Of a DNA stretch of 64,000 nucleotides, positions 26,883-28,753 are shown in pieces. Position 1 is the first letter of the stretch, and every line of letters starts with the position of its first letter. Origin of the DNA: Escherichia phage 24-32N; sequence record PV933157.1; one strand, given 5' to 3'. Both the position numbers and the translations under genes were made by a program. The notes below the pieces were generated by a model, which made no database searches, was not told the DNA's origin, and saw only the letters and a list, made by a program, of their open reading frames with translations.

Positions 26883-27068
26883 TTGAGTATTAATAATTGG
26901 ATAATCAGTATGATTGACCTAATCTCTACTCCGTATGCCTATGAGGTAACGGATAACCGAGGACGTAAGTACTTGGTGTTTGCAGGTAGCGTAGCCTATA
27001 ACAACGCAGTCATGTTTAAGTACAAACTCAAACCACTCTATGAGGCTAATAATGGCAACAGTAAGTAA
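26883..27068 (+). CDS. Small hypothetical protein
   Basis: ORF track. Confidence 0.35.
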   Translation: MSINNWIISMIDLISTPYAYEVTDNRGRKYLVFAGSVAYNNAVMFKYKLKPLYEANNGNSK

Positions 27069-27432
27069 AGAAGCAATCGAAGCTAAGATTAAGAGCGTTT
27101 ATTATTTCAATAGTGCAGATGCAGTGAAGTCTGCATTCGTTGACCCCTCTGCACTTCCGGCAGATGATTTGGCTAACCTGGGTCTGGTAACCCATTGTGT
27201 AATCATTCTGGAAAACAACTTTAAAGTTGAAGGTGTGTCTGCCTGTGTAGACCCGGCTATCTATGATGAACAGAAGGGTCGTCAATATGCATATGAAAAT
27301 GCATTCAATAAGATCTGGGAATTGGAGGGTTACCTCCTACGTCAGGCACTGCATGAGCAAGCCCAGAGCCAGGAAATGTTAAAGGGCTTCCTGGAAAATA
27401 ATGAGTGTGAAGGTGGGGGTTGTAAAATCTAA
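27052..27432 (+). CDS. Conserved phage protein (possibly N4 gp49 / Sf6 gp66-like family)
   Basis: Start at the ATG at 27052 with GAGG upstream; GVSACVDPAIYDEQKGRQYAYENAFNKIWELEGYLL pattern; family assignment from memory. Confidence 0.4.
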   Translation: MATVSKEAIEAKIKSVYYFNSADAVKSAFVDPSALPADDLANLGLVTHCVIILENNFKVEGVSACVDPAIYDEQKGRQYAYENAFNKIWELEGYLLRQALHEQAQSQEMLKGFLENNECEGGGCKI

Positions 27433-27680
27433 TGGATATAAACCCTAAAGTTGGGTTTGCTTCCGTTAAAGTTTTAGCTAAAAGCGGAAAAATTACTTCT
27501 GAACCAGCTTACCATCATAAGTTCCCTATTGGGGAAACAGCAGATACAATCAATGTAAATAAGTTGGAAAAGGAATTACTTAGTATGGCTAAACACCATG
27601 TAAGCAAACATCCCCCTACAGAGTATGAAGCTAAGTTCGGATACTTCATTGAGTATACGAAAGGGCAATATTCTAAATAA
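27432..27680 (+). CDS. Hypothetical protein
   Basis: ORF track. Confidence 0.45.
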   Translation: MDINPKVGFASVKVLAKSGKITSEPAYHHKFPIGETADTINVNKLEKELLSMAKHHVSKHPPTEYEAKFGYFIEYTKGQYSK

Positions 27681-27788
27681 AAGTTAGTGGTGGTTGCACC
27701 ATTTAGCAAACAGGTATATGGTAGTTTTCACCGAAAGGTACAGAACTACCCGACATGTGGTAAGGCTTTAGAAGCCAAAACAAAACAA

Positions 27789-27812
27789 GCCCTCCTAGTG
27801 AGGGCTTTATCA
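27789..27812 (+). terminator. Hairpin / candidate terminator
   Basis: Stem AGCCCTC / GAGGGCT followed by TTTAT; lies inside the first 140 nt of track ORF 27687-28313. Confidence 0.4.
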
Positions 27813-27824
27813 TTTGAGGTAGTT

Positions 27825-28313
27825 ATGTCAGAAGAAATTAAAGTCCATTTCACCAATTATATCGGAACCAAGTGTGTATATGGTTTTCCGATGAGTAAAG
27901 AAACATACTGCAAACTTCGTGGTTGGGATGTACCAGCAGATGAAGATACGCTAGAAGAGGGTTACTTAGTAGAGTACCCAGACTCTAAGTCCAACCATCC
28001 TCAGTTCCGTGGCTATATTAGCTGGTCACCAAAATCTGCGTTTGAAGAAGCATACCGTGATACGAAAAAAGGTTGTACCTTTGGTCATGCAGTAGAACTT
28101 ATGAAAACAGGCTTCAGAATGACCCGTAAAGGTTGGAACGGAAAAGGAATGTATATCACCTTAGTATCCGGTGAAAATTGGGCCATGGATAAACATGAAA
28201 ATACCGTTTATGAGAAACGGGATTGGCTAGGCATTAAAACCATTGATAACCAGTTTATGCCATGGATTCCATCCCAATCAGATGTATTAGCAGAAGACTG
28301 GGTAATTCTATAA
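27825..28313 (+). CDS. Protein with C-terminal DUF2829 (Tad2-like) domain; candidate anti-Thoeris signal sponge
   Basis: Start at the ATG at 27825 with GAGG 6 nt upstream; C-terminal RKGWNGKG...PWIPSQSDVLAEDWVIL matches the remembered DUF2829 pattern. Confidence 0.45.
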   Translation: MSEEIKVHFTNYIGTKCVYGFPMSKETYCKLRGWDVPADEDTLEEGYLVEYPDSKSNHPQFRGYISWSPKSAFEEAYRDTKKGCTFGHAVELMKTGFRMTRKGWNGKGMYITLVSGENWAMDKHENTVYEKRDWLGIKTIDNQFMPWIPSQSDVLAEDWVIL

Positions 28314-28323
28314 GGAAGATAGC

Positions 28324-28557
28324 ATGACACAAGTATCTATTACCTCTGTTGTTCGTGAGGCCATTCTCAACAATACCGTCCGTACATATTCATTTGATGA
28401 AATCGCAGAGAAACTAGGAGTGACTCGTTACGTAGCTAAGAAACTTTACTTCTCATTCCTGTGGTTCCCTTCTGAAGAAACACTACAGAAGATTAAGGAG
28501 ACTGGTAAATTCACAAGTGAAGGGCGTAAGCCTAAGATGTGGAGAACGCATGACTAA
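28324..28557 (+). CDS. Small protein with HTH-like motif
   Basis: FDEIAEKLGVTRYVAKK helix-turn-helix-like segment. Confidence 0.4.
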   Translation: MTQVSITSVVREAILNNTVRTYSFDEIAEKLGVTRYVAKKLYFSFLWFPSEETLQKIKETGKFTSEGRKPKMWRTHD

Positions 28558-28753
28558 ATCATATGCAGCACAACAAGTAAGAGTATTAGTGGAAAGAGAT
28601 AATCTCAAAGAGAAGTATGAAGCTTTGAGTACTTTCTTACTAAGCCCTAAAGCACGTGATATTGAACCAGAAGAGAAATACCTGCTTGGGTTACAGCACC
28701 AAGCCATGGGTTCCTATCTATACGTACTCAATAAACGAATTGAAAGATTCTAA
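28550..28753 (+). CDS. Small hypothetical protein
   Basis: Start at the ATG at 28550 with GGAG upstream (track ORF starts at 28517). Confidence 0.4.
   Translation: MTKSYAAQQVRVLVERDNLKEKYEALSTFLLSPKARDIEPEEKYLLGLQHQAMGSYLYVLNKRIERF

Follow-up and report, generated by a model that had tools for sequence, protein, structure and literature searches.

Candidate Acb4, Tad2 and Sequestin sponge genes in a variable island beside the virion RNA polymerase gene of Escherichia phage 24-32N

The stretch analysed here (64,000 nucleotides (nt) of Escherichia phage 24-32N, record PV933157.1; hereafter the window) comes from an N4-like coliphage of the Gamaleyavirus (G7C/IME11) group. Six short plus-strand open reading frames (ORFs), g1 to g6, form an island between two strong terminators and face the convergent gene of the virion RNA polymerase (vRNAP). 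With a probability of about 0.85, this island is the distal variable part of an anti-signalling hotspot of N4-like phages and encodes three separate small homo-oligomeric sponge proteins: an Acb4-family protein (g2), a Tad2 fusion (g4) and a Sequestin-family protein (g6), which are candidate sponges for cyclic dinucleotides, glycocyclic ADP-ribose (gcADPR) and 3' cyclic ADP-ribose (3'cADPR), respectively. Fedorova et al. have described such a hotspot in N4-like phages, where it lies between the gene of the primase-polymerase and that of vRNAP (10.64898/2026.06.04.730250). They have found Tad2, Tad3, Acb4 and Sequestin at this position in most N4-related phages and have tested the hotspot partly by experiment (10.64898/2026.06.04.730250). 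The island is a new example of the hotspot already described in June 2026 by Fedorova et al. and not a new phenomenon. An earlier reading of the window, made from the sequence only, had taken the island for a typical hotspot of anti-defence and host-modulation genes; this is supported and was, if anything, too cautious: three of the six genes, and not one, belong to characterised sponge families. The features of the locus are collected in Table 1.

Table 1. Features of the island and its surroundings, in positions of the window (aa, amino acids).
Feature	Position	Strand	Reading
RuvC-like protein	23648..24202	+	ortholog of N4 gp46 and Ab09 gp60 (Bes1)
Acidic 147-aa protein	24204..24647	+	positional and weak sequence counterpart of Ab09 gp61 (Bes2)
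TM53	24656..24817		small membrane-protein gene, 53 aa
Left intrinsic terminator	26845..26882	+	closes the tRNA/noncoding unit; left island border; top scan match (26845-26876)
g1	26910..27068	+	52 aa, phrog_34266
g2	27052..27432	+	126 aa, Acb4-family (PF13876) candidate cyclic-dinucleotide sponge
g3	27432..27680	+	82-aa ORFan; start overlaps g2 stop (TAATG)
Acb4 3'-end remnant	27686..27706	+	AGT GGT GGT TGC ACC ATT TAG (SGGCTI, then stop)
117-nt element	27708..27824	+	three hairpins; conserved noncoding
g4, whole gene	27825..28313	+	fusion of the two domains below
g4 N-terminal domain, aa 1-81	27825..28067	+	sponge-associated partner domain, homologous to the RyR Tad N-domain
g4 C-terminal domain, aa 82-162	28068..28313	+	Tad2 (PF11195/DUF2829), candidate gcADPR sponge, short-insertion class
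g5	28324..28557	+	77-aa predicted four-helix protein, phrog_9565
g6	28550..28753	+	67 aa, Sequestin-family (PF21825) candidate 3'cADPR sponge
Right bidirectional intrinsic terminator	28757..28787	both	common to the island and the convergent vRNAP gene
vRNAP gene	28786..39156	-	3456 aa

Sponge-family proteins of the island

All six ORFs are under purifying selection, with ratios of nonsynonymous to synonymous substitution (dN/dS) of about 0.05-0.35 in pairwise comparisons with relatives and up to 0.45 for g2; all six are therefore real protein-coding genes. NCBIfam gave no match for the six island proteins or for the neighbouring TM53 and Bes1-like proteins, and a single match far below threshold for the Bes2-like protein (16 bits against a cutoff of 290).

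The product of g2 belongs to PF13876: it scores 89.4 bits where the gathering threshold is 27 (E 2.2e-25), and the alignment spans positions 2-82 of the 82 in the profile. The gene has a GAGG ribosome-binding site ahead of its start ATG 27052 and a dN/dS of 0.12-0.45. The sequence-only reading had listed it as a gp49/Sf6 gp66-like conserved protein, a membership that the profile confirms and a label that understated the protein: PF13876, formerly 'N4 Gp49/Sf6 gene 66', is now the Acb4 family of sponges directed against the cyclic oligonucleotide-based antiphage signalling system (CBASS) (10.1101/2024.12.30.630793). The Pfam name is a numbering trap, because RefSeq numbers the PF13876 protein of N4 as gp48 and its DUF2829 protein as gp49. 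N4 gp48, which is 53% identical to g2, acts in vivo as a cyclic-nucleotide sponge; experiments have shown it to be an active Acb4 that the sponge-sensing Panoptes system both needs and finds sufficient for its activation (PMC12657230). SPO1 Acb4 has been reported as a homotetramer, with pockets between its protomers, that sequesters 3'3'-cyclic GMP-AMP (3'3'-cGAMP), a ligand bound by 8/8 homologs tested (10.1101/2024.12.30.630793). Single-sequence searches of g2 against PDB sequences gave no match, and SPO1 Acb4 (PDB 9E4W) was reached only with a profile made from 11 N4-like g2 homologs (E 3.4e-6). Among the residues with which SPO1 Acb4 contacts its ligand, F48 is kept in g2 as F57, F62 and N63 are replaced conservatively by Y and D, and six others are changed (K36 to L, E49 to K, V56 to C, Y57 to V, I66 to K and T70 to Y). 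Divergent Acb4 homologs still bound 3'3'-cGAMP, and homologs from phages of Gram-negative hosts have shown altered specificity (10.1101/2024.12.30.630793); the SPO1 contact residues are therefore not family-defining. The tail of N4-like Acb4 proteins reads ...FLENNxCEGGGCKI (...ECEGGGCKI in g2, window 27355-27432). Another Acb4 homolog, gp89 of Pectobacterium phage CB1, is encoded elsewhere in the genome, close to the terminase genes (40649-41041 of locus L032 in our numbering). It is 64% identical to g2 and closer to it than the N4 or IME11 alleles, and this closeness points to horizontal exchange between N4-like genera.

A Tad2-like protein had also been proposed for the island, and the C-terminal half of g4 bears this out with a match to the Tad2-like family PF11195 of 82 bits (E 5e-23). 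Solved Tad2 structures are matched significantly, bona fide Tad2 proteins ranking first among the PDB matches of g4. Tad2 proteins are homotetramers, and Tad2 has been shown to sequester gcADPR (10.1101/2023.05.01.538930). Of the ten residues that contact gcADPR in SPO1 Tad2, eight are identical in g4 (W25, N26, I63, T65, D67, W73, S76 and D79), T78 is replaced conservatively by S, and H71, whose contact is only water-mediated, by M. A long insertion between strands beta2 and beta5 has been reported to let HgmTad2 and SptTad2 bind cyclic dinucleotides (10.1101/2023.11.15.567273). The long insertion that makes the cyclic-dinucleotide pocket of this subclass was not found in g4, where the beta2-beta5 insertion falls short of the one in SPO1 Tad2 by about 5 residues, and the alignments with HgmTad2 and SptTad2 reach only g4 residues 84-118.

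Although a Pfam search gave no match for the first 81 residues of g4, conservation in this module is sharp, and its motifs GYLVEY and YxSWSPK are invariant. In a profile comparison (hhalign) this N-domain matched residues 1-71 of CB1 gp68, the RyR Tad protein, with a probability of 96.5% (E 8.7e-10, 71 columns), and the motifs GYLVxY and YxSWSP are common to both. Homologs occur in 124 isolate phage records. The domain is found as a stand-alone protein (66-100 aa), fused to PF21825 in about 25 clusters and fused to PF11195 in about 8, and PHROG cross-matches give weaker signs of fusions to PF13876 as well. New fusion partners were sought in N-domain homologs of 115-141 aa without a Pfam match, which were mostly frameshifted or truncated metagenome calls. 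AlphaFold2 models the domain as beta-beta-alpha-beta-beta-alpha with a predicted local distance difference test score (pLDDT) of 93-98, and its nearest solved structures are weak Tudor/SH3-like neighbours only. The N-domain of RyR Tad has been reported to form a domain-swapped dimer with a five-stranded sheet, to be encoded often by its own ORF and to lack anti-Thoeris activity when alone (10.64898/2026.06.04.730250). The most economical reading of the g4 N-domain is thus an oligomerisation module common to several sponge families, and a role in ligand binding is also possible. Two other published factors were considered for the island. Lockin, a beta-rich hexameric cog absent from sequenced isolate phages, fits no gene here by its published description and was ruled out for the g4 N-domain by the isolate phage records in which that domain occurs; Acb5 was rejected for g1, g3 and g5 on its published description.

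The last gene, g6, had been left unrecognised in the earlier gene list. Its product scores 63.3 bits with PF21825, whose cutoff is 24.8 (E 2e-17), and aligns with positions 4-61 of the 61 in the profile; the start of the gene overlaps the end of g5, and its dN/dS is 0.09-0.16. A single-sequence search of g6 against PDB sequences gave no match. PF21825 is the Sequestin family, an antiparallel homodimeric sponge for the Thoeris signal 3'cADPR that was discovered through its frequent fusion to Tad2 or Acb4 (10.1101/2025.07.12.664507). Family members span 60-80 aa, and the tetrad residues of Sequestin have been validated by mutation (10.1101/2025.07.12.664507). Residues R11, E15, Q49 and R63 of g6 are invariant in an alignment with 15 other PF21825 domains (16 members), and their spacing (4/34/14) is close to that of R8/E12/Q47/R61 in SequestinA (4/35/14).

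Architecture and mosaicism of the locus

The island had been proposed as six plus-strand genes bounded by terminators and convergent with the giant late operon, and each of these elements is present. A terminator scan gave 16 sites where shuffled sequences would give 5.1 +/- 2.6, and the two that bound the island are its two top-scoring matches. The left one has a 13-bp stem, a loop and a T-run and is conserved across Gamaleyavirus loci. The right one (28757-28780) has a 10-bp stem and a T-run, ranks second in the scan and is conserved across N4-like loci; the SP5M record annotates it on both strands. The vRNAP gene lies on the opposite strand beyond it. The proposal of one small-gene cluster stands in that all six genes lie between the terminators, but they do not follow one another without a break: 144 nt of noncoding sequence (27681-27824), which contain a third terminator-like hairpin (27787-27807), divide the island into g1-g2-g3 and g4-g5-g6. 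The start of g1 also has to be moved. The earlier start at TTG 26883 was less likely than ATG 26910, from which g1 most likely begins; this fits the PHROG match (E 3.5e-22, to an uncharacterised family), which sets in at residue 10 of the TTG-started ORF, and the records of Mimir124, Moonfish and UE-S5a, in which the gene has 159 nt.

Comparison with relatives from IMG/VR and GenBank revealed a variable locus. The island region matches 77 phage records, none of which covers its full length at high identity. In a presence/absence matrix of 22 loci with 21 distinct arrangements, g1 to g6 come and go and none of the 21 related N4-like loci has the six-gene set of the window; the locus is thus not invariant, in agreement with the accessory character proposed earlier. 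N4 has Acb4 and the N-domain-Tad2 fusion only, and ECBP1, PhAPEC5 and UE-S5a have g1, Acb4 and Tad2. SP5M has every gene except Sequestin. IME11 and CU10EC have every gene except g1, with an Acb4 allele of 51-54% identity. The IMG/VR phages L006 and L007 retain only g1, g5 and a 49-aa remnant of Acb4. Klebsiella KP8-like phages carry Acb4, a DUF7279 gene, Tad2 and Sequestin, followed by g3, and more distant N4-like phages have nothing between the membrane-protein gene and vRNAP. Alleles are exchanged in pieces. The body of g2 is ECBP1-like (87%), and IME11 has identical sequences for the last 26 residues of g2 and for all of g3. The Tad2 domain of g4 is 89-92% identical to N4 and ECBP1 and 54-64% identical to IME11, CU10EC and Bas96, whereas the N-domain stays 82-95% identical where the Tad2 domain diverges. 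Judged by these identities, the island alleles are mosaic, also within genes.

Other cassettes are found at the same locus in relatives. They include a family of 94-109 aa with the motif KKGxxIPKRxG...RKxRH (Bas96, ZQ2 and L014), DUF7279 proteins (Klebsiella N4-like phages and L008), and, in Erwinia phage phiEaP8 (L029), a 614-aa protein beside a stand-alone N-domain. The places at which such cassettes were noted are L041:3261-3554, L043:2837-3166, a 94-aa ORF in L014, a 51-aa ORF in L011 and L014 and the 614-aa ORF of L029.

Of the genes outside the sponge families, g1 is found in most, not all, Gamaleyavirus loci and has a dN/dS of 0.06-0.36. The 82-aa g3 is far rarer. Pfam and NCBIfam searches with g3 were empty, phrog_29724 was its sole match, and the relatives given by homolog searches were either very close or very few. 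The gene has only 5 clusters in a set of 1.84 billion representative proteins and occurs in 18 phage records, all of them N4-like phages of E. coli or Klebsiella with the gene always at the island locus. Its dN/dS is about 0.18 against a homolog of 56% identity. Behind g3, positions 27686-27706 are a diverged direct repeat (14/21 nt) of 27412-27432, so that two copies flank the gene. In some relatives the aligned sequence is the true end of the Acb4 gene, and it is identical to the end of the 49-aa remnant ORF in L006 and L007. As diverged Acb4 3'-end repeats flank g3, the sequence suggests that the g3 cassette was inserted by recombination in the conserved Acb4 tail-coding sequence.

The 117-nt element between this remnant and g4 is 88-100% identical across all Gamaleyavirus loci and is kept where g2-g4 have been lost. 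It contains hairpins at 27720-27750 (with a GAAA loop) and 27764-27776 in addition to the terminator-like one. Its fold has a z score of -3.5 on the plus strand and -2.7 on the minus strand, and one pair of stem 1 becomes G.U through an A-to-G change, which is compatible with a plus-strand RNA only. In either orientation the hairpin at 27787-27807 is scored as a terminator; its T-run is better on the minus strand, and it may therefore also halt late-operon transcripts that read through. When IMG/VR was scanned for the exact pattern, the element was found in six Gamaleyavirus contigs only, which are too similar for covariation analysis. Similarity of the 27764-27776 hairpin to the vRNAP promoter hairpins of N4 was considered and dropped, as early promoters are confined to the left genome end.

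A second noncoding stretch, 26600-26880, extends from the tRNA-Ile gene to the left terminator and is conserved as DNA in Gamaleyavirus, in Klebsiella N4-like phages and partly in N4. Its identity to the Klebsiella phages is 72-80% over about 255 nt, where the neighbouring proteins are 45-57% identical. RNAalifold found compensatory changes in 8 of 25 predicted pairs, and the single-sequence fold has a z score of -3.2. Rfam searches (E <= 0.1) gave no family for either this stretch or the 117-nt element. Only two tRNA genes were detected upstream of the island, at 26442-26517 and 26524-26599; in this adjacent pair (26442-26599) the anticodon of one is undeterminable, and the other is a tRNA-Ile with the unusual anticodon AAT, which is annotated likewise in relatives. 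Farther upstream, about 1.6 kb (24818-26440) is without convincing genes. Within it, 25400-25571 has weak tRNA/tmRNA-like fragments below the Rfam threshold, and a 56-aa ORF, intact in L006, L007 and L030, apparently persists as a decayed copy at 24835-24948.

Proposed mechanism and rival readings

According to the reading preferred here, the island genes would be expressed together with the rightward middle (replication) genes, as may be supposed from the biology of N4. The g2 tetramer would sequester CBASS cyclic dinucleotides, e.g., 3'3'-cGAMP or isomers of c-di-AMP (cyclic di-AMP), the g4 Tad2 tetramer would sequester Thoeris gcADPR and possibly histidine-ADP-ribose (His-ADPR), and the g6 dimer would sequester 3'cADPR. 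The g4 N-domain may serve as an extra dimerisation module that holds the Tad2 tetramer. As the second messengers made by host immune sensors would be bound by these sponges, the downstream effectors are proposed never to be switched on during infection.

Several points weigh against this sponge reading. A strong terminator (26845-26876) lies upstream and a search for sigma-70 promoter-like sites gave 9 against 11.4 expected by chance, with no excess, so that no promoter is proposed and transcription of the island is unexplained. Judged by sequence, g2 keeps the stacking phenylalanine and the structural core, but the base-reading residues (K36, E49, V56, Y57, I66 and T70 of SPO1 Acb4) differ, and the ligand specificity of g2 is therefore not readable from its sequence. 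The model of the g4 Tad2 domain is poor in the insertion, with pLDDT <50 predicted at residues 117-143. Functions could be assigned to only three of the six genes (g2, g4 and g6). Finally, to have both Tad2 and Sequestin against type I Thoeris would be redundant, for which there is no explanation, although redundancy has been seen in Ab09 (10.64898/2026.06.04.730250).

An extension of the sponge reading can be put forward tentatively, i.e., that at least one uncharacterised component (g3, g1, g5 or the g4 N-domain) is a new anti-signalling factor and that, additionally, the 117-nt element may be a cis-regulatory RNA or a small RNA that sets the dosage of the island. If so, such dosage control could limit the triggering of sponge-sensing systems such as Panoptes.

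A second proposal accepts the sponges and makes g5 a small helix-turn-helix (HTH) regulator of the island, comparable to the Aca proteins of anti-CRISPR operons, with the 117-nt element upstream of g4 and g5 as operator, attenuator or promoter for g5. AlphaFold2 predicts a confident four-helix bundle for g5 (pLDDT ~90), Pfam HTH_11 and Sigma70_r4 match residues 11-36 weakly, and among its best structural neighbours are many folds of the homeodomain, Mu Ibeta and sigma region 4 types. In addition, g5 and the 117-nt element persist together where the sponges are lost (L006, L007 and ZQ2). However, every line of HTH evidence is below significance, with 12-13 bits against Pfam cutoffs of 24-26 (E ~0.1) and a best Foldseek E of 2.0 (TM score 0.41-0.47), and the HTH-like protein of the earlier reading is not borne out; a DNA-binding HTH protein is possible. 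ECBP1, PhAPEC5, UE-S5a, Bas96 and N4 retain sponge genes without g5. The gene (dN/dS 0.05-0.19) occurs in 138 phage records, and its distant homologs lie in FelixO1-like phages and in T7-like Klebsiella phages, in some of the latter beside the gene of the single-stranded DNA-binding protein (SSB), with no sponge genes noted there. A regulatory role of g5 is therefore considered unlikely.

It is very improbable that the island holds ordinary accessory genes of the replication (middle) module, such as nucleotide- or RNA-binding helpers with no role in immune evasion. The genes do end the rightward replication block, after SSB, RuvC-like and related genes, the Acb4 fold resembles double-stranded RNA-binding domains, and Bes1 and Bes2 of Ab09 may act through phage development and not by direct inhibition. 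However, the genes are dispensable in nature, as L006 and L007 lack all three sponges and distant N4-like phages have nothing here; the three families are backed by direct biochemical and genetic evidence for sponge activity, and the ligand-contact residues are conserved in g4 and g6. Not credible is the label 'anti-CRISPR protein' of the Mimir124 record, by which g4, and g2 as labelled there, would be AcrIIA7-type proteins that block Cas9; type II CRISPR-Cas is, to our knowledge, normally lacking in E. coli. AcrIIA7 does carry DUF2829 and its structures (8KBI and 9KZR) are among the PDB matches of g4, but these span only g4 residues 84-114, the best matches being bona fide Tad2, and AcrIIA7 is HgmTad2, which binds gcADPR and cyclic dinucleotides and did not inhibit SpyCas9 in vitro or in vivo (10.1101/2023.11.15.567273), a conclusion reached likewise by Yirmiya et al.; PF13876 is without published anti-CRISPR activity, and AcrIIA9 has a PcfK domain and not PF13876.

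The sponge reading has consequences for annotation and use. A coliphage packs Acb4, Tad2 and Sequestin as separate genes in <2 kb, and relatives shuffle them as cassettes, even as half-genes. N4-like genes labelled 'hypothetical', 'gp49/Sf6 gp66-like', 'anti-CRISPR' or 'terminase ATPase subunit' are better read as anti-CBASS and anti-Thoeris sponges. Misleading labels of this kind are seen in Mimir124 (L001) and Moonfish (L002), where the Acb4 and Tad2 homologs are named 'anti-CRISPR protein' and the Sequestin homolog 'putative ATPase subunit of terminase'. In phage therapy with Gamaleyavirus-type phages, the content of the locus would predict for each isolate which host immune systems it can evade and which sponge-sensing systems, such as Panoptes, it may trigger. 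New anti-defence or regulatory functions may be sought at little cost in three well-delimited small genes (g1, g3 and g5) and in the conserved noncoding element. Novelty remains in these three genes, in the N-domain with its several fusion partners and in the conserved RNA-like elements, the rest being explained by published families and the published hotspot.

Upstream genes and comparison with known systems

The conserved genes upstream of the island tie it to the published hotspot. The RuvC-like protein is 41% identical to Ab09 gp60 (E 3.7e-46) and 35% identical to CB1 gp74 (E 2e-28), and its gene is present in every relative whose fetched locus extends that far. The RuvC-like and TM53 genes are 69-100% identical among the N4-like phages of E. 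coli and Klebsiella. The Bes2-like acidic gene is always present and diverges to 34-62% outside Gamaleyavirus. The acidic protein has 30% identity to Ab09 gp61 over its full length (E 0.02), with equal size and position, and by sequence it is a borderline counterpart of Bes2. In more distant N4-like phages, a small membrane protein in the TM53 position directly abuts the vRNAP gene.

The gene order of the window, from the replication genes (primase, SSB and RuvC-like) to vRNAP, fits that of the hotspot when compared with N4, CB1 and Ab09. As in the Ab09 hotspot of Fedorova et al. (gp59-gp61), the genes follow SSB and the RuvC-like gene and precede a convergent vRNAP gene, the Acb4, Sequestin and Tad2 families are represented, a Bes1 ortholog is followed by a Bes2-like acidic protein, and the content varies between relatives. 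In contrast to Ab09, where Acb4 and Sequestin form one fusion, they are separate genes in the window, which has a Tad2 fusion in addition. The sponges lie upstream of Bes1 and Bes2 in Ab09 and downstream of them in the window, where about 2 kb of tRNA/noncoding DNA and a strong terminator separate them. The window also adds the three small genes g1, g3 and g5 and a conserved noncoding element.

The individual proteins can likewise be set beside their published counterparts. With SPO1 Acb4, g2 shares membership in PF13876, the core beta-strands and the stacking phenylalanine. It differs in its length (126 aa against 96 aa), with an N-terminal extension of about 40 aa, and in its C-terminal tail CEGGGCKI, whose two invariant cysteines are not found in SPO1 Acb4. 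With the Tad2 proteins of known structure (SPO1 Tad2, 8SME-G; ModTad2, 9EIB), g4 shares the DUF2829 domain and, as SPO1 Tad2, a short beta2-beta5 insertion, but its 81-aa N-terminal domain is absent from the solved Tad2 proteins. RyR Tad (CB1 gp68) has a homologous N-domain, and its C-terminal sponge domain is ryanodine-receptor Repeat12-like where that of g4 is Tad2. With the Sequestins (SequestinA and B, T4 Y16O and the C-domain of Ab09 gp59), g6 shares its size, the full-length Pfam match and the R/E/Q/R tetrad; it differs in being a stand-alone gene, without BLASTP-detectable similarity to the Sequestin domain of Ab09.

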